This document shows, piece after piece, positions 9,174-27,675 of a stretch of 28,623 nt of DNA. Within the stretch, counting starts at the first letter, position 1. Each line of letters starts with the position of its first letter. The DNA comes from a virus (lineage: Duplodnaviria; Caudoviricetes), in IMG/VR virus record IMGVR_UViG_3300017903_003153, positions 1 to 28,623 of that record; one strand, given 5' to 3'. Position numbers and translations under genes: made by a program. The notes under the pieces were generated by a model. It worked only from the letters and a program-made list of their open reading frames with translations. It was not told the DNA's origin and ran no database searches.

Positions 9174-9725
9174 ATGCCAAGTCCAAAAGGTGATCCCACC
9201 TACATCAAAAATAAAGAGAAGTTCTTTATGGATGTAGCCAAGGTTATTAGCAACGGTTCAACTCATCCAAAAGTACAAGGGGGTTGTGTCCTTACCCGTG
9301 ATCGCGAGATTATTGGTGATGGTCGATCTCTGCTTACTCATTCAAAAAATGAGATTTGCTGTGTTGGCCATGCCGTGGCAGCTGCTGCTAAAAGAGGCAC
9401 GCCAACTACTGGTGCTGTTGTCTACACAACCCGTTATCCATTTAGTCAGTCTGTCTTTCAGTGTCATGTGATGGGTATCCGCCAGATCTACGTTCTTGCC
9501 CATGAATGGGAGGCTTTTTATAAGGATGAATTTCGCCGTGCCGCTCGCCTTGCCCGTGATGTAAATCTGTCCATTGAACCGGTATTTGACAACGAGGATC
9601 CTCGTTTTGCTCAAAATGCTCAGGACATCATGGATAAGCAGGTTGATACATCCCTCTATACCAATGCCTACAAACCAGATGAGTACGACCCAGAAGAGCA
9701 AAAAGACATCCGAGACGAAGACTGA
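9174..9725 (+). CDS. dCMP deaminase-fold protein lacking HAE and PCxxC
   Basis: FFMDVAKVISNGST..GCVLTRDREIIGDG..AVAAAAKRGTPTTGAVVYTTRYP..GIRQIY; HAE reads CCV and PCxxC reads PFSQS. Confidence 0.75.
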   Translation: MPSPKGDPTYIKNKEKFFMDVAKVISNGSTHPKVQGGCVLTRDREIIGDGRSLLTHSKNEICCVGHAVAAAAKRGTPTTGAVVYTTRYPFSQSVFQCHVMGIRQIYVLAHEWEAFYKDEFRRAARLARDVNLSIEPVFDNEDPRFAQNAQDIMDKQVDTSLYTNAYKPDEYDPEEQKDIRDED

Positions 9726-10242
9726 GCTCCTGTTTGATATTGAATCGACTGGGCTTCTTCGTGAGGGTTCACGAATCCACTGTATTGTTGCCCGTGATTT
9801 GAGTGATCCTGAGACACCACTCGTCTTTGATCACCGACCTGATCGCGAGTTGCTTGTTGGTGTTCACCAGATCATGCAGGCTGATGTACTCATTGGCCAC
9901 AATATCTTGGATTATGACCTGCCTCTTCTCAAGGAACGTTATCCAGATCTAGACCCTCAGGGTGAAAAGCTGGACACCCTTGTCCTGAGCAGACTGTTCT
10001 ATCCGCATATCAAGGAGCGTGATTTTGACCGTCGCCCAGATGGCATGCCGCTCAAGCTCTATGGCAGACATAGTCTTGAGGCATGGGGTTACCGTTTGAA
10101 GTGCTTCAAAGGTGACTACGGCAAAGGTGTAAACGCCTGGGATAAGTACACCCCTGAAATGCTTGATTATTGCAAGCAGGACACTGAGGTGACATACAAG
10201 CTCTATCTACATTTCAAAAACAGGATGAATAACCATGCTTGA
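9679..10242 (+). CDS. 3'-5' proofreading exonuclease subunit of a split family A DNA polymerase
   Basis: ExoI FDIES, ExoII GHNILDYD, HSLEAWGYRL, ExoIII YCKQD; ATG 9679 preferred. Confidence 0.9.
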   Translation: MSTTQKSKKTSETKTELLFDIESTGLLREGSRIHCIVARDLSDPETPLVFDHRPDRELLVGVHQIMQADVLIGHNILDYDLPLLKERYPDLDPQGEKLDTLVLSRLFYPHIKERDFDRRPDGMPLKLYGRHSLEAWGYRLKCFKGDYGKGVNAWDKYTPEMLDYCKQDTEVTYKLYLHFKNRMNNHA

Positions 10243-11551
10243 TTACGTTGCACTCGAAATGCGGATGGCTGAGCTGATGGCTGTCCAGCAACGCAGTGGT
10301 TTCCGCTTCGACTTGGAGCGTGCCATCCAGGTTCGTGGAGAGCTCCAACAAGAGTTCGATGACCTTCAGCAGAAGATCCTGACCAAGTTTCCCTATGTCG
10401 CAGGCAAGGTGTTTACTCCTAAGCGTGCTGACAAGAAGAAGGGCTATGTGGCGGGTGCACCGATGACGCGTCTCGAGGTGTTCAATCCGACCAGCCGGCA
10501 GAACATCTCTTGGGCACTTCAAACATTTCGCAACGCTCGCTTTACCAAGGTCACCGATACAGGCAAGCCGAAGGTTGATGAAGCAGCACTCGGTGAGCTC
10601 CAAGAGCGTGCTTTACAGGAGGACAACCAGCTACTTCACGAGGAATGCGGGATGTTCATCCGTCTGCTTACCCTCCAAAAGTGGCTTGGGCAGCTGTCTG
10701 AAGGCTCCAATAGCTGGTTCAACACGATTGAGGGTGATGGCTGCATTCACCATTCCTGCACACTGAACACACAGACGGCTAGAAATGCTCACCGTGGGCC
10801 GAATCTTGGTCAAGTTGTGAGTGCACCCTGGGCACGGCAGCTCTTCATCCCGCATCCCGGTCATCTTATGGTCGGTTGCGACCTTGAAGGACTTGAGCTT
10901 AGGGCGCTTGGGGGGTACTTGCACCGTTTTGATGGAGGCTCCTTTGCTGACGTCGTGATTAACGGTGATATTCACCAACAGAATGCCGACAGAGTAAGTA
11001 CCCCAGAAGTCCCTGTCTCTCGCAAGGCAGTGAAAAATTTAACTTATGGGTTCATCTATGGAGCTGGTGACCTCAAGCTGGGTCACATCATTAAGCCTGA
11101 ATACTCTGACGCAGCCAAAAAGTCTCTTGGGTCTGATCTTCGTAAGAAATTTCTTGAAGCTATCCCAGGTCTCGAGCCTCTGATTGATGCAGTCAAAGCT
11201 CGCGTGCGTGAGTACGGCTACATCAAGGGGCTTGATGGTCGCCCTATCTACACTCGCGCTGAGCACAGTGCGCTGAACTTCTTGCTTCAGTCATGTGGTG
11301 CGATTTTGAGCAAGCGGTGGTGCGTCATCTCACAGGACATGCTTGATGAAGCAGGCCTGACCTATGACGTGGACTACACCCGTTGTGCCTATGTGCATGA
11401 CGAGCAGCAGTTCTCTGTTGTGCCATCAGAAGCAGAGCGAGTCGCCAAGATCCTTGTCGATGCAGCACCCAGGGCTGGTCAGTACTATAACTTTAAAGTA
11501 CCAATCACAGCTTCATCCGATATCGGTAAAACCTGGGCTGACACTCACTAA
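10235..11551 (+). CDS. polA: Polymerase subunit of a T7-like family A DNA polymerase (Tyr762 type)
   Basis: Motif A DLEGLELR, motif B RKAVKNLTYGFIYG, motif C YVHDE; FNPTSR; ALNFLLQS. Confidence 0.93.
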   Translation: MLDYVALEMRMAELMAVQQRSGFRFDLERAIQVRGELQQEFDDLQQKILTKFPYVAGKVFTPKRADKKKGYVAGAPMTRLEVFNPTSRQNISWALQTFRNARFTKVTDTGKPKVDEAALGELQERALQEDNQLLHEECGMFIRLLTLQKWLGQLSEGSNSWFNTIEGDGCIHHSCTLNTQTARNAHRGPNLGQVVSAPWARQLFIPHPGHLMVGCDLEGLELRALGGYLHRFDGGSFADVVINGDIHQQNADRVSTPEVPVSRKAVKNLTYGFIYGAGDLKLGHIIKPEYSDAAKKSLGSDLRKKFLEAIPGLEPLIDAVKARVREYGYIKGLDGRPIYTRAEHSALNFLLQSCGAILSKRWCVISQDMLDEAGLTYDVDYTRCAYVHDEQQFSVVPSEAERVAKILVDAAPRAGQYYNFKVPITASSDIGKTWADTH

Positions 11552-13045: not shown

Positions 13046-13216
13046 TTATCTACTCTCGCAATTGATCTCGTCATCACAATCAAAACACGTGACCCACGTT
13101 GCGTCATATTTTAAAAGCTCCTTAGGCAGTAGCCCTTGGAGCTCTTGAATTGCTGCAATCTGATGAGATAGACCTTTGTATTTTTTGAAGTAATCGATCA
13201 GCTTTATTTGCCGCAT
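13046..13216 (-). CDS. 56-aa protein resembling the N-terminal accessory domain of cyanophage endolysins, not in ORF track
   Basis: MRQIKLIDYFKKYKGLSHQIAAIQELQGLLPKELLKYDATW; TGATG overlap with upstream gene. Confidence 0.6.
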   Translation of the reverse strand: MRQIKLIDYFKKYKGLSHQIAAIQELQGLLPKELLKYDATWVTCFDCDDEINCESR

Positions 13217-14219: not shown

Positions 14220-14456
14220 CTAATTTTTTGTAAGTCCAGTAATTCGATCTAGTTTTTCTTCAATTCGTGTCATATGCAACTCAACCCGATCAAGCACCGC
14301 TGTGAAATCACTTTTGGACACGTAGGATTCAGCTACTCGAAGTTCTAGTCTGTCGATTCGTCTATCCAATTCTTTGATATTGCTGTTGACCTTTCCCATG
14401 AGGATAAATCCTCCTGAGATCAGAGCAACAGTACCAGTGAGTATTGGTTCAATCAT
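14220..14456 (-). CDS. TM plus coiled-coil protein (lysis-module-type membrane protein)
   Basis: Hydrophobic N-terminus; LDRRIDRLELRVAESYVSKSDF..RIEEKLD. Confidence 0.75.
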   Translation of the reverse strand: MIEPILTGTVALISGGFILMGKVNSNIKELDRRIDRLELRVAESYVSKSDFTAVLDRVELHMTRIEEKLDRITGLTKN

Positions 14457-14706
14457 GTTTTTTCACTGATGGATGTGAGTATGATATCGACCATCCTTCT
14501 TGTCCAAACTTTCCTTTTTCCTTGTAGATCGGTCGTGGATTTAGGTTTTGCTGCTTCTTATGCCAGTCCTTCTCCGCCTGATCCAGTTTTCTAGGCAGAG
14601 AGGTGTAGAACTTTCTTTCCTGCAGATAACGCCTGAAACGTTCCCGCTCTGTCATCGTGTTGTACCGGAACAGCCACTTTGCGTCCTTTGGTACAACCCC
14701 GTCTAC
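14449..14706 (-). CDS. Basic ORF, most likely made as a -1 frameshift extension of the 46-aa membrane protein
   Basis: Frame is open from just upstream of the slippery site through ATG 14655 to the stop at 14449. Confidence 0.65.
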   Translation of the reverse strand, partial: VDGVVPKDAKWLFRYNTMTERERFRRYLQERKFYTSLPRKLDQAEKDWHKKQQNLNPRPIYKEKGKFGQEGWSISYSHPSVKKHD

Positions 14707-14712
14707 TTTTTT
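14659..14712 (-). other. Programmed -1 ribosomal frameshift signal
   Basis: A_AAA_AAG (14712-14706) in correct phase before TAG, 8-nt spacer, stem GTTGTACC/GGTACAAC. Confidence 0.75.
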
Positions 14713-14843
14713 ACTGGCTTCAGCTTAGTGATCAGGCTCATGATCAGTTGAACCACACTATTATCCTTGAGTGGACTAATAGCAATAATTTCAGAAAGTG
14801 CAGCGACAATAATCCAAAGCTCGGCAGAATGTAGGAATTCCAT
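14703..14843 (-). CDS. 46-aa holin-like membrane protein (MEFLHSAELWIIVAALSEIIAISPLKDNSVVQLIMSLITKLKPVKK), not in ORF track
   Basis: Translated by hand; hydrophobic helix, SExxxxSPLKxNSxxQ motif, basic tail; TAGAAT at 14867-14872. Confidence 0.75.
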   Translation of the reverse strand: MEFLHSAELWIIVAALSEIIAISPLKDNSVVQLIMSLITKLKPVKK

Positions 14844-14911: not shown

Positions 14912-14995
14912 GGGACCATGGCGGAATTGGTAGACGCGCCGCACTTAAAATGCGTTCTCCGCAAGGAGGTGAGGGTTCAATTCCCTCTGGTCCCA
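14912..14995 (+). tRNA. tRNA-Leu (anticodon UAA), CCA not encoded
   Basis: Acceptor GGGACCA/TGGTCCC, D-loop TGGTAGAC, anticodon loop CTTAAAA, long variable arm CTCC-GCAA-GGAG, T arm GAGGG-TTCAATT-CCCTC; TGnTAACAT upstream. Confidence 0.95.
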
Positions 14996-15049
14996 CTGAC
15001 TTGACGGTCTTCGGTTTTCCGTTACAACTGGCACTGGCGTTCTCAGTGT

Positions 15050-15529
15050 GTGCCCAAACCACGGACATGGGCAGAACAAGACTTGAGGTTGGCTGTTGCT
15101 GAGTCGACTTCTCTTCGCCAGGTGCTGAGCAAGCTTGGTCTTAAGGAAGCAGGTGGGAACTACACAACCATTCGCAACGCAATTAATAAGTTTTGTATCG
15201 ACACCAGCCATTTTAGGGGTCAGGCTTGGAACAAAGGTCTCACGAACATAAGAACTGGTCCTCAAAGACCCATATCTGTTTTTCTTGAAGATGGTGTTCC
15301 GATCCAGTCCTACAAATTAAAACACAAGATTTTGATGGAAAGACTGCTTCCCAGAAAATGTGCGGGCTGTGGACTTAAACGTTGGAGAGGAAAACCAATT
15401 CCACTTGAGCTCGAGCACAAGGATGGCAATAACTCAAATAACAGCCTTGACAATTTAGAGTTGCTTTGTCCTAACTGTCACGCCCAGACAGCCACGTATC
15501 GAGGCCTGAACATACGACGAGCTGCGTAG
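15050..15529 (+). CDS. tRNA-adjacent HNH homing-type endonuclease
   Basis: N-terminal HTH-like SLRQVLSKLGL..GGNY; CAGC..LELEHKDGNNSNNSLDNLELLCPNCHAQT. Confidence 0.9.
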   Translation: MPKPRTWAEQDLRLAVAESTSLRQVLSKLGLKEAGGNYTTIRNAINKFCIDTSHFRGQAWNKGLTNIRTGPQRPISVFLEDGVPIQSYKLKHKILMERLLPRKCAGCGLKRWRGKPIPLELEHKDGNNSNNSLDNLELLCPNCHAQTATYRGLNIRRAA

Positions 15530-15629: not shown

Positions 15630-15848
15630 ATGGCAAGAATTCCTTCCGAGTGGGCGTCGTCTTCTGATGTCGCTCGTCATTTCGGTATTAGTACACGTCA
15701 TCTTCGATCATTGCGTCGAGAATGGGAGGAACGTGGTCTGCTCCTCGAGGGCAAGCACTTTTGGCAATTTTCTCCTCGTGTTATTCGTTTTGACTTAGAT
15801 GCTATGTCGAAACTTGCCCATAGTCAGGGCAGGATCATCCGACCTTAG
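15630..15848 (+). CDS. Excisionase/MerR-like winged-HTH DNA-binding protein
   Basis: SSSDVARHFGISTRHLR..GLLLEGKHF..IRFDL; converges on the recombinase. Confidence 0.75.
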   Translation: MARIPSEWASSSDVARHFGISTRHLRSLRREWEERGLLLEGKHFWQFSPRVIRFDLDAMSKLAHSQGRIIRP

Positions 15849-17085
15849 CTTTTTTACGAACGTACAAATGCAACTCTCTCGCATAGGTCTTTTCGATCAT
15901 GCTTGCTGAGTTTCCAACTGCCGCTGCACAAGTTGCTGCTGTGTGAAGACCAGTAATAAGGCTTACTGAGCAGTAGCGATGTCGCAAATCCGTTGCGCTC
16001 ACACCCATCTTTTCCTTGACTGCTCGAGAAAGTTCGGATGAGCGCAACTCCCATTTTCTATTTAAGTCACCTTGAGGCCTCTTCCCGAATACAAATAATT
16101 CTTCGTAATTCTTGGGCCGCCAGTCGCTTAGATCAATCAGCTCCCCATTTTTAAACGGGCATGGAACCGCGCAGCACCCATAGTTGTTTTTGGTCGCCCA
16201 GTAACTTACATATCCAGTTTCCTTGTCGTAGGTCTCCCAGTCCGATGAGTAAATCTGCATAATCCTGTGCCCGTAGATGGCAATGGCATAGATGTGCTTT
16301 TTCAAATCCTCGTCCTGTATAGCGTTCAGCCTTTCCCACAGCACCTCGTCATCAGGAATCCTCAGCCTGCTTTGTGGCTCGTACTGATAAGCAGGTTTTT
16401 GGTTTTCGCGGACTCCTAACGGTTGCCCGAGGTGTTCACAAACTTTTTTCATGATGTCGAATGCGTTTCTATAGCTCTTCCTCCTTCGGTCTCCGTAGAA
16501 GTCCAGCAGGGCATCAGCGCAAACTTCCAGTGAAATATTTCTTGATTCTTCGGCTGCCCATGCGAAGCAGATGTCCAGCCAGCGGAGATGGTATCTCAAG
16601 CTTGTATCACGAATTCTCATCGTTCCACATCGATCTATTAAATATGCCTTTGCTTTTTTCTGCAAATTCTTCTGAGCTAGCGGACTGAATGCCAGGGCTG
16701 TCCTGTCGTAGCTCTCAAGATTCCTGCGCGTGTCCCTCCCGAGCTGCCCCAAGGCGATCAAATCTTCCGCTTCTTTTAGCGCTTGAGTCAGGGAATCCTG
16801 AATCCTGTTCGGCCTGAGAGGGGTGTGCAGTCTTCTCGAGGTCTCCTTTTCATTCCCCTTCCAAAGGCCATCAAGGTCGATCGCGTGATGACCGTTCTCA
16901 TTAGGCCTTGCTTTGACCCGCAACCTGCACCGCTTATCGGCAATGTACAGGTGGCTCTGATGCCTCAGGTATTTGTTCGCTGCTTTTAGCTCCTTATTCC
17001 AAGAGGTAGTCATAGCCTGAAACCAATCTGTCGAGACTCTACCAAACTCGTCTACCAATTTCCCCGCTCTTCCCCCTTTCTTCAC
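15835..17085 (-). CDS. Tyrosine recombinase/integrase with non-canonical catalytic set
   Basis: YGHR (box I Arg), ATK, TDLRHRY (HxxR reads TxxR), VGNS (GH reads GN), KTY nucleophile. Confidence 0.75.
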   Translation of the reverse strand: MKKGGRAGKLVDEFGRVSTDWFQAMTTSWNKELKAANKYLRHQSHLYIADKRCRLRVKARPNENGHHAIDLDGLWKGNEKETSRRLHTPLRPNRIQDSLTQALKEAEDLIALGQLGRDTRRNLESYDRTALAFSPLAQKNLQKKAKAYLIDRCGTMRIRDTSLRYHLRWLDICFAWAAEESRNISLEVCADALLDFYGDRRRKSYRNAFDIMKKVCEHLGQPLGVRENQKPAYQYEPQSRLRIPDDEVLWERLNAIQDEDLKKHIYAIAIYGHRIMQIYSSDWETYDKETGYVSYWATKNNYGCCAVPCPFKNGELIDLSDWRPKNYEELFVFGKRPQGDLNRKWELRSSELSRAVKEKMGVSATDLRHRYCSVSLITGLHTAATCAAAVGNSASMIEKTYARELHLYVRKKAKVG

Positions 17086-25359: not shown

Positions 25360-27675
25360 TTATGCCAGTGATTCTTTGAGTTCAGTCAGTTCTATTTTAA
25401 GCTCTTTTATTGCTTCAATGAGGAGTGCAGTCAAGTTGCCGTAACTAACACCATACTCATCTACATCCTCAGCATATGTGACCACTTCTGGTACAATCTT
25501 CTCGACTTCTTGGGCGATTACACCCATTTCATCTTTTTCGCTAACGGTTTTGTCAACGTTGATTTTGTTATAGGTAACACCACGAAGATTTAGGACTTTG
25601 CTAAGTGCTGACTCAATATTTTTGATATTTGTCTTCTTCCTTGCATCAGAATAAGCAGTAATATTACCTGTTGCATAAATCGCCCCAGTTACATAGAGAT
25701 CATACGAGGAAGAAGTATTTGAACCTGCTATAGCCATGCAACTATTACCACGACTCCAATGAAGAGTCCAGCCTGAACCATTTGGTTGATACCAACCACC
25801 ATTACCATTATTCCACATAAGGGTGTTATGGTAACCCTGGTCGTCCAATATCATCAGCCCAGCATAGTTGCCTCTGCTTCCATTTATTCGCCAAGCTCCA
25901 TAAGAACTGGTCGTATTGGGCTGAATGTGAGCACTGTTGGTATCTGAATGAATTCCAGTTGTATTCGTTTTCAACCAAACATATTTATAGGTGTACCCGC
26001 TGCTTCCGTTGAAATGCCAATGGAGAGAACCAAGATCTTCATTATTATATAACCTAATCCCTCCATATTGAGATTGAGCACCCATACGAATACCGGTGTG
26101 CCAACGCAGGTCTAACTTGGTGTAAGTACCTCCATAGTTTTCAGAGTTCGTACCAAGGTGATAATTCCCAAAATCATTGCCGCCGCCAAAACTCATTCTC
26201 GAAGAGGAAATTGAGTTGTAGTGGTTATTGGATGTATAACCTCCCACAATAAGAGCATTAGAATAGGAGCCAGATGGAGGAATGTTGACGCACCAATTTC
26301 CATTACTATTCAATAGACCGAATCCATTACTATCCCAGTACACATAACCTTTGCGATTAGTAGCGTTTCCTGCGCTGGCGTTATATCCGTCGTAGAAGAT
26401 AAGGCCATTACTGGAATTCAGATGCCAGTATTGTGAACTTGCTGAGAAAAAGTGCTTTCCCGTTGCTTCATTGTAAAGCCCCTCACTTGCATTATAATTT
26501 CTGAACCAGTCATCAGCGTAAATATCTGTACCACGTATATTTTTCCCAGAAGTATCCCAGGTATAACCGTCTAAATTGTCAGCATCTAAACCAGAACCCG
26601 CACCGTCATTACTGCTGTCCCAGACTGTTCTCCAGGCTTGCCAAGTTCCATTGTTTTTTCCTCTTATCGCAATTTGACCAGTTCTATAGTCTTGAAAAAT
26701 CTGTGCTTGCCAGCTAGAACTATAAGCTTGTGAGAACAAAGCACCATCAGTCTGCCCAAAAAGGGAGACGCTGTTGGCGTAATATAATCCATTGATAGTT
26801 GTATTGTTTGGGTTTATAGCACCACCAGAATTCGATGAGATGAATTGTGATGAGCTGCTTGTTGTCTGAACGAAACCACTTGCTTGTATTCCATCAAGTA
26901 AATCAGCATCTAAGCCTGATCCACTTCCGTCAACAGTTAGAAGTGCTGAAAGAATTTCAGCAGCAGTTTGATCAGCCGTAGCATTAGTCTCAATTCCATC
27001 CAGTTTGGTCTTGTCTGCACCGGTCATTAAGCCTGAATCACCCGCTGCAATAACCTCAGGAATTGTGGCGTCATTTCCAGTTGAACTGGCCAGCACCCGC
27101 GTTGATGCTGTGTAACTCAAATCCGTGGATCCACTAACAGTGACAGCACCGGTTTGACCATTGACGCTGGTCACTGTATTGACCTGGGCACCAGTTTCAA
27201 TGCCATCTAACTTATTTTTGTCTGCAGTGCTCATGGAAGAGACGGCCCAGGACAAATTGCCCGAACCGTCTGTCGTAAGCACCTGGGAGCTTGTCCCTGC
27301 ACTGCTTGGCAAAGTCAGTGTGTAATTAGCTGCTGAGCTATGAGCCGGAGCCTTGATATTGACAGTGTGAGTATTCTGCTCACACGTCAGGCTCAACTTC
27401 CCCGATCCGTTTGTTGAGTCTCCTTTGATCGTGACAGCGCCATCAAAATCCACATCTGCTGAGAATGCTACGTCTCCAGTAAACGTTGCTCCACCTAACG
27501 CTGCATAGTTATCAAAGAGACTGACTACTGACCCTGTGCTGTCCTTAAAAAATAATTGAGGATCACTACTGTTGTAATTAATTGCTAATTCACCGTAATC
27601 CAGCTGACTCGAAGTCGGTGCTTGAGCTGATCCCGAAAGCAGGGCGCTACTGCGTTTTAGCTGAATCTTGGTCAT
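25360..27675 (-). CDS. Tail fibre protein with S74 chaperone
   Basis: Same N-terminal module; VTSVNGQTGAV; two GSGLDAD repeats; AYSDARKKTNI. Confidence 0.9.
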   Translation of the reverse strand: MTKIQLKRSSALLSGSAQAPTSSQLDYGELAINYNSSDPQLFFKDSTGSVVSLFDNYAALGGATFTGDVAFSADVDFDGAVTIKGDSTNGSGKLSLTCEQNTHTVNIKAPAHSSAANYTLTLPSSAGTSSQVLTTDGSGNLSWAVSSMSTADKNKLDGIETGAQVNTVTSVNGQTGAVTVSGSTDLSYTASTRVLASSTGNDATIPEVIAAGDSGLMTGADKTKLDGIETNATADQTAAEILSALLTVDGSGSGLDADLLDGIQASGFVQTTSSSSQFISSNSGGAINPNNTTINGLYYANSVSLFGQTDGALFSQAYSSSWQAQIFQDYRTGQIAIRGKNNGTWQAWRTVWDSSNDGAGSGLDADNLDGYTWDTSGKNIRGTDIYADDWFRNYNASEGLYNEATGKHFFSASSQYWHLNSSNGLIFYDGYNASAGNATNRKGYVYWDSNGFGLLNSNGNWCVNIPPSGSYSNALIVGGYTSNNHYNSISSSRMSFGGGNDFGNYHLGTNSENYGGTYTKLDLRWHTGIRMGAQSQYGGIRLYNNEDLGSLHWHFNGSSGYTYKYVWLKTNTTGIHSDTNSAHIQPNTTSSYGAWRINGSRGNYAGLMILDDQGYHNTLMWNNGNGGWYQPNGSGWTLHWSRGNSCMAIAGSNTSSSYDLYVTGAIYATGNITAYSDARKKTNIKNIESALSKVLNLRGVTYNKINVDKTVSEKDEMGVIAQEVEKIVPEVVTYAEDVDEYGVSYGNLTALLIEAIKELKIELTELKESLA
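26556..26610. repeat. Second copy of the 55-bp fibre junction repeat
   Basis: Direct comparison with 23758-23812. Confidence 0.9.

Follow-up and report, generated by a model that had tools for sequence, protein, structure and literature searches.

A short gene with a slippery heptamer at its end

The window (the whole 28,623-nt stretch of DNA analysed here) carries on its minus strand a 46-aa ORF that ends in the heptamer A_AAA_AAG (Table 1). An earlier note on this DNA had placed the heptamer in the slippery X_XXY_YYZ phase directly before the stop codon, with a −1 frame that opens four codons upstream of it. Both readings hold: the match is exact on the minus strand (14712-14706), and the −1 frame runs 85 codons to 14449, where it closes with TGA (14451-14449), for a predicted total product of 131 aa. 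Three in-frame X_XXA_AAG sites occur in the 8,079 codons of the 32 window ORFs, and only that at 14712-14706 lies at the end of a gene with a long −1 frame (85 codons, versus 9 and 15). The other two, both G_GGA_AAG, are at codon 21 of the gene at 14220-14456 (minus strand), with a −1 frame of 9 codons, and at codon 406 of that at 25360-27675 (minus strand), with a −1 frame of 15 codons.

Table 1. Features at and near the candidate frameshift site in the window
Feature	Position	Strand	Remarks
46-aa ORF, short form	14703-14843	minus	hydrophobic helix 7-22 (invariant Glu18), turn, amphipathic helix 27-41, Lys-Lys end; PHROG 22542, no assigned function
Slippery heptamer A_AAA_AAG	14706-14712	minus	X_XXY_YYZ phase; conserved
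0-frame stop TAG	14703-14705	minus	abuts 3' end of heptamer
−1 frame, 85 codons, tail of predicted 131-aa long form	14449-14706	minus	predicted helix 20-52, Pro-rich linker, C-terminal motif common to T4-GC 410 proteins
Internal ATG of the called 68-aa ORF	14653-14655	minus	not conserved; probably no real start
Hairpin, 8 nt 3' of heptamer	14659-14697	minus	probable stimulator in the window lineage; not conserved across the family
Second stable hairpin, tail codons 33-49	14560-14610	minus	empirical p 0.005
78-aa protein	14220-14456	minus	N-terminal hydrophobic segment, heptad-like helical tail; ATG overlaps tail end by 8 nt
56-aa stand-alone homologue of cyanophage endolysin N-terminal domain	13046-13216	minus	same minus-strand run; own HMM, E 7e-11

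The short gene is labelled hypothetical in several cultured phages, and a joined CDS is absent from all 10 phage regions viewed. Existing annotations miss the predicted frameshift, calling a truncated second ORF or none. The second ORF of the window is called from the ATG at 14655, which, as the earlier note had observed, has no Shine-Dalgarno (SD) sequence and a leader that is largely buried in structure; the 20 nt upstream are mostly paired, with a mean unpaired probability of 0.23, as opposed to 0.54 and 0.40 for the flanking starts. The missing SD says little by itself, because the true start of the 46-aa ORF, at 14843, has none either.

We modelled the short form and the tail separately. 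The short form is predicted to consist of two helices (residues 7-22 and 27-41; pLDDT 73), the first hydrophobic, with invariant Trp10, Ala14, Ala15, Ser17 and Glu18, and the second amphipathic. It has a single marginal membrane segment of 16 residues that includes a Glu (best 17-residue hydropathy 2.1). In the tail model a single helix spans residues 20-52, and what follows it has low confidence. The tail had previously been described as basic, which is true of the window (20 Lys plus Arg, 11 Asp plus Glu) but does not extend to the family, since many homologous tails are visibly rich in Asp and Glu. Neither the short ORF nor the tail contains a Cys, and the 78-aa protein has none either, which argues against a spanin.

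Neither the short form nor the tail could be assigned to a named family. No holin family was matched when 73 family members were compared with Pfam, NCBIfam and PHROGs, and 80 distant members with PHROGs. Sequence searches of the PDB returned nothing for the short form or the tail, and a fold search of viral models (BFVD) returned nothing for the short form; in the ESM Atlas, the short protein matched hypothetical clusters only and the tail matched nothing. Matches to SecD and YmiA were weak (best E 0.008-0.05), and we judged them to be hydrophobicity noise. The short family is broad, with 190 representatives at 50% identity, many of them without the Lys-Lys end; these distant members are protein records with no DNA context, and it follows that the shift may be confined to a subfamily. 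Two distant members, P0138 and P0172, both singletons, are in-frame fusions with a lipoprotein-type signal and one more domain.

Conservation of the heptamer and of the −1 frame

Conservation was analysed over 171 loci. Besides the window itself, these comprise 10 phages, cultured or from fosmids, together with the best 80 of 540 matches in viral contigs and the best 80 of 312 in metagenomes, a choice that is biased towards the window. Complete parsing of 160 of these loci gave 81 clusters at 85% nucleotide identity; one incomplete locus and 10 loci missed by our regular expression lie outside the cluster counts. When these 10 loci were read by hand, seven were found to have A_AAA_AAG and a tail, and three to have neither. 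There were nine matches in genome contigs, and six of the eight that we read have both signal and tail. One weak Lentilactobacillus genome-contig match was dropped. The short protein has matches in 15 phage records, every one of them from a cyanophage or from an uncultured marine phage, and the arrangement is kept in seven of the 10 cultured cyanophages, which include podoviruses and siphoviruses. A search of viral contigs with the tail as a single-sequence locus query found no relative, and the exact DNA pattern of heptamer plus stem had no matches.

Conservation of the heptamer in homologues had been proposed as a check, and a canonical heptamer is indeed present in 66 of the 81 clusters (A_AAA_AAG in 55, G_GGA_AAG in 11), with a stop codon 0-1 codon 3' of it in all 66; six of the other clusters have A_AAA_AAA or A_AAA_AAC, and nine have none. 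AAA-AAG is preceded in 55/55 clusters by a codon whose wobble base is A, across nine amino acids, and the codon before GGA-AAG is CCG in 11/11, i.e. its wobble base is G, such that the first base tracks the heptamer type. As a background, the remaining ORFs of these loci contain 242 Lys-Lys dicodons, of which 6 are A_AAA_AAG. As at −1 frameshift sites of the dnaX/IS3 type, the in-phase heptamer is conserved beyond amino-acid need. Both A_AAA_AAG and G_GGA_AAG rank among the most efficient heptamers in E. coli, according to the accessible text of PMC4066793 and PMC5009743. We examined tRNA-Lys patterns in 61 genomes from the family of a Prochlorococcaceae genome, the presumed host, and found tRNA-Lys(UUU) in 60 and tRNA-Lys(CUU) in four; for this presumed host, AAG would be read by tRNA-Lys(UUU).

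The heptamer and the tail occur together. Both are present in 65 clusters, the heptamer alone in one, the tail alone in two and neither in 13 (Fisher p 4e-12, for clusters that are related by descent). The two clusters with a tail alone carry other A-rich heptamers, and 13 of the 14 tail-less clusters also lack the canonical signal. On a poorly resolved tree of 111 columns, from which the heptamer columns were excluded, the tail has to be gained or lost 11 times, and supported branches force at least four of these changes.

An open −1 frame in homologues had also been anticipated, and 65 of the 66 clusters with a canonical heptamer have a homologous tail in this frame. With a leave-one-out HMM, tail homology was found in the −1 frame only, the 0 and +1 frames scoring below 3 bits in all 81 clusters; the +1 frame is open for at least 40 codons in 2 of 72. 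The possibility that the tail is a separate gene, translated from the ATG at 14655 or by reinitiation after the 46-aa ORF, gains something from the existence of that ATG, its use by gene callers and an ESM Atlas sequence that begins at residue 18. Nonetheless, the ATG is replaced in all four of the closest relatives, and an ATG is missing altogether from 24 of the 70 complete tails and confined to the second half in 32. Homology to the tail begins at tail residues 3-4, and differences in tail codons 1-17, which precede the ATG, are distributed over the three codon positions as 0.28/0.29/0.51, the third being highest, as in the rest of the tail. In a near relative from public contigs, 14 of the 15 differing sites listed at 14566-14656 are third positions of the −1 frame. 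The −1 frame is thus open and conserved and lacks a start of its own, and conservation of the heptamer would be needless for two separate genes, an arrangement that we consider very improbable.

We also considered transcriptional slippage on the A run as the source of a fused product. The run is 7-9 long in five of the 55 A_AAA_AAG clusters, and some database proteins carry indels here. By contrast, the run is 6 long in the other 50 and there are only three A in the 11 G_GGA_AAG clusters, which disfavours polymerase slippage, and conservation extends to the final G and to codon phase, neither of which slippage requires; it is hard to credit slippage as the explanation at all. As for the database proteins, 18 of the 38 longer ones are in-frame fusions of short protein and tail, and 11 run into wrong frames, mostly as singletons. 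None of the contig loci has an in-frame fusion, and indel errors are therefore the likely origin of those in the databases, which we did not count as genuine.

The earlier note's central proposal, a programmed −1 frameshift that gives a short and a long form, is strongly supported by this comparative evidence, in which heptamer, stop codon and open frame are conserved together, and we regard such a frameshift as very probably real. Overall, the sequences point to a well-conserved recoding signal of a familiar kind, found here in a class of gene that is new for it, with a function that is plausible but unproven.

Structure downstream of the heptamer and likeness to known sites

The stem that had been seen after an 8-nt spacer is present as described, with 8 bp (14697-14690 with 14666-14659) plus an inner helix. 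Its energy is −16.3 to −17.3 kcal/mol, with z about −2.2 relative to dinucleotide shuffles and an empirical p of 0.05 relative to synonymous shuffles. Among the changes listed for the near relative at 14667-14712, six are in unpaired bases, one turns a G-C pair into G-U and none is in the heptamer or stop codon. Covariation, which had been suggested as a further check, did not appear: across 28 aligned relatives the stem pairs in 44.7% of cells, which is the level of shuffles. RNAalifold found no consensus structure and no covariation in these relatives, and none of three named hairpin models (the window stem and two others) was above shuffles.

Over tail codons 9-25, 21 of 54 clusters fold in excess of synonymous shuffles, compared with 3-9 of the 54 from codon 21 on (paired test, p about 0.012). 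This loose excess without a consensus suggests that structure 3' of the heptamer is favoured but is reinvented by each lineage. A scan for H-type pseudoknots gave 54 of 65, versus 50.6 expected, with no excess over synonymous shuffles. Rfam found only a tRNA in the window, and a scan of the window for promoters and terminators was at chance level.

The site resembles those of E. coli dnaX and the IS3 family (IS911, IS3) in its in-phase A_AAA_AAG, in the 3' hairpin of the window and in a host family that mostly has tRNA-Lys(UUU) only. Unlike these, the cyanophage family lacks an internal SD (an SD-like 4-mer lies upstream of the heptamer in 1 of 54 clusters) and a conserved 3' structure, and it is a small membrane protein that would be extended at its stop. 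We envisage that two tRNA-Lys(UUU) would re-pair on A_AAA_AAG, and tRNA-Gly and tRNA-Lys on G_GGA_AAG, the slip being aided by local 3' structure that varies by lineage. Most ribosomes would stop after Lys-Lys and yield an abundant 46-aa membrane protein, while a minority would slip and yield the 131-aa form, such that the shift would set a ratio of many short to few long.

The predicted shift falls in the last codons of a short ORF and would give a minor, C-terminally extended form that shares its N-terminal domain with the short one. This recalls lambda gpG/gpGT, for which the accessible text of PMC5009743 gives a ratio of 30:1; some tail-assembly-chaperone frameshift sites also use G_GGA_AAG. 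Unlike gpG/gpGT, the cyanophage gene encodes a membrane protein in a lysis module, occurs in podoviruses too and has no tape-measure gene among the neighbours scanned; these are lysins, terminase, integrase and HNH genes, which, together with the hydrophobic N-terminus, argues against a tail chaperone.

Genomic setting and candidate roles of the two forms

Pfam lysin domains (lysozyme, glucosaminidase, M15, C39, YkuD) lie at most 900 nt from the gene in 27 of 80 clusters, as judged from 131 scanned ORFs of at least 130 aa. Endolysins at these loci share an N-terminal domain of roughly 55 residues, and an HMM that we built from 20 of them matches 48 of the 80 clusters, such that the union with the Pfam set is 51 of 80. 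The window, a partial record of 28.6 kb in which we found no catalytic endolysin, has a split endolysin N-domain only. Stand-alone N-domain ORFs are also found in the window-like loci L024, L027, L035, L037, L040, L043, L057, L088 and L094-L096; the domain may have been separated from its enzyme and may serve in export or in binding a partner. Directly upstream of the N-domain ORF in the window is an 81-aa ORF (13461-13216, minus strand) with a hydrophobic N-terminus and a helical tail, a second small membrane candidate for which we found no family match.

Of the 81 clusters, 51 have in their locus a gene of about 80 aa with the build of the 78-aa protein; it falls into two subfamilies, and its side varies, some clusters having it upstream and others downstream. 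In T7-like phages the frameshift gene sits between the tail fibre and the small terminase, the position of the holin in T7. The nearest relatives of the window locus lie among integrase and HNH genes, which counts against a role in lysis. Taken together, a lysis-module context for the gene is supported. Known phage frameshifts are mostly in tail chaperones, capsid or tail proteins, whereas the predicted frameshift here is in a membrane gene of a lysis module, in marine and freshwater cyanophages. In two window-like loci, a SET-domain gene on the opposite strand abuts the tail stop (L024 2898-3299 and L037 2892-3290, both minus).

Residues of about 41-83 of the tail are homologous to T4-GC 410 / PHROG 6464 proteins (hhalign 90.8%, E 1.2e-6), such that our analysis links two families without a known function, PHROG 22542 and PHROG 6464. 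The T4-GC 410 homologues (55 records) are single-frame genes of T4-like cyanomyoviruses; their products share the helix, linker and C-terminal motif, behind an N-terminal amphipathic helix of their own (moment 0.41), and the genes lie beside gp3, nrdB or tRNA genes, not lysis genes. In T4-like genomes with T4-GC 410, we found the short protein in none of six (at E 0.001) and the 78-aa protein in none of five. S-SRP01, a phage whose small gene has no heptamer, has a possible stand-alone homologue of the tail (L188 920-1252; weak, E 6e-4) beside thymidylate synthase. All eight T4-like loci (L011 1433-1786, L181-L187) also carry, in a different frame, a conserved ORF that overlaps the gene for T4-GC 410 in its 3' half; we did not find this ORF in the window or the other loci, and it matches no annotated feature in most of the T4-like records viewed.

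The earlier note had suggested a holin/antiholin-like lysis timer. In lambda, S105 and S107 are a holin and an antiholin made from one gene by dual start, and the cyanophage gene is similar in being a small membrane-protein gene beside an endolysin, with two forms predicted at a set ratio. It differs in that the two forms would be distinguished by a C-terminal tail of 40-110 aa added by recoding, and in that it has no sequence link to any holin family, its holin activity being only putative. The part of the suggestion that stands is the lysis-module context; no holin family was matched, and the C-terminal half of the tail is a separate gene in T4-like cyanomyoviruses, in genomes where we did not find the short or the 78-aa gene, which argues against a simple antiholin. 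The strict timer version is doubtful, and the label "holin" for the short form is unproven.

Granted a real frameshift, we think it fairly probable that the gene acts in the lysis module. More specifically, and with a slight preference, we propose that the short and long forms are a fixed-ratio pair in this module, in which the long form is an adaptor or regulator built on the membrane part common to both. With the same membrane helices, the two forms would be expected in the same place, much as lambda gpG and gpGT have a domain in common; the long form would offer its helix and C-terminal motif, and could thus link the membrane component to another partner, or temper it.

Alternatively, the frameshift may be real and the long form a membrane-anchored host-interaction module outside lysis, with the short protein mainly an anchor. 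T4-like phages would supply the anchor by their own amphipathic helix, and they keep the tail motif away from lysis genes, and the weak stand-alone match in S-SRP01 is next to thymidylate synthase. Against this, in podoviruses and siphoviruses alike the frameshift gene keeps company with the approximately 80-aa membrane gene and with endolysins that differ in catalytic type. T4-like cyanophages may also have lysis genes that are scattered or too diverged to be recognised, and we consider a module outside lysis unlikely. It is also conceivable that the shift chiefly meters the next gene: only shifted ribosomes would end on its start, which would set a low output of endolysin or the 78-aa protein by coupling. 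The next same-strand ATG overlaps or abuts the tail stop in 34 of 64 clusters, and does so by 8 nt in the window; in the tail-less clusters L010, L083 and L170 the endolysin ATG overlaps the stop of the short ORF, and in L138 it lies 6 nt beyond. Stop/start overlaps are nonetheless common in phage operons, and in 19 of the 64 clusters there is no near downstream gene. Coupling cannot be the only role of the tail, because the tail is conserved as a protein, and we judge it improbable as the chief one.

The fixed-ratio pair can be placed in a wider scheme, which we advance as speculation: recoding-based control of lysis across cyanophage podoviruses and siphoviruses, in which a single −1 slip would do two things, namely fix the ratio of a holin-like membrane protein to a tailed regulator and bring ribosomes to the start of the next lysis gene. 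The tail would then be a portable cyanophage module, alone in T4-like myoviruses, pointing to a shared partner such as the endolysin N-domain or a host membrane factor. The gene is a candidate for the timing of Synechococcus lysis in the cultured phages S-CBS1, S-CBS3, KBS-S-2A, S-B28 and S-EIV1, which bears on burst size and carbon turnover.

Other links between frameshifting and lysis genes have been proposed. Streptomyces cluster BI phages have putative frameshifts in genes near holins and endolysins; unlike the cyanophage site, these are GeneMarkS predictions, with no heptamer named and no conservation test in the accessible text (PMC9671017). In MS2, frameshifting or termination at the upstream coat gene was proposed to set translation of the lysis gene, and a later paper cited there credits activation to termination at the coat gene (accessible text of PMC10885494 and PMC5009743). 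MS2 is an RNA phage with no conserved heptamer and no extended membrane protein; the cyanophage gene has such a heptamer and a predicted extended form. We found no description of the frameshift site in the literature searched, which includes the accessible text of PMC3556154, PMC3711429 and PMC8557907 and leaves aside most subscription papers as well as the original S-CBS and S-EIV1 genome papers. The words "holin" and "cyanophage" are absent from the first 300,000 of the 449,034 characters of PMC5009743, and in the literature searched we came across functional holin studies for two freshwater cyanophages only.

The rest of the window contains thymidylate synthase, helicase-primase, a two-ORF DNA polymerase (9574-11551, plus strand; exonuclease 9574-10242, polymerase 10235-11551), tail-fibre genes, a tRNA-Leu gene and a weak NblA match. 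The last of these is an ORF at 13835-13497 (minus strand) that matches NblA over residues 5-53 with E 0.0023, below the cut-off, has a long acidic tail and overlaps an HNH ORF at 14190-13654; it had no match among cultured phages, and a search with the primase-helicase found no close cultured phage. An uncultured cyanophage lineage with NblA, integrase and a split polymerase is described in the accessible text of bioRxiv 10.1101/325100, and the window resembles it in gene content. Upstream of the short gene are tRNA-Leu(TAA) (14912-14996, plus strand), an HNH gene (15050-15529, plus strand), an HTH gene (15630-15848, plus strand) and a 416-aa ORF without a family match (15835-17085, minus strand). 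In several relatives the small gene is preceded, upstream, by integrase-like genes, and this region of the window is a possible integration module.
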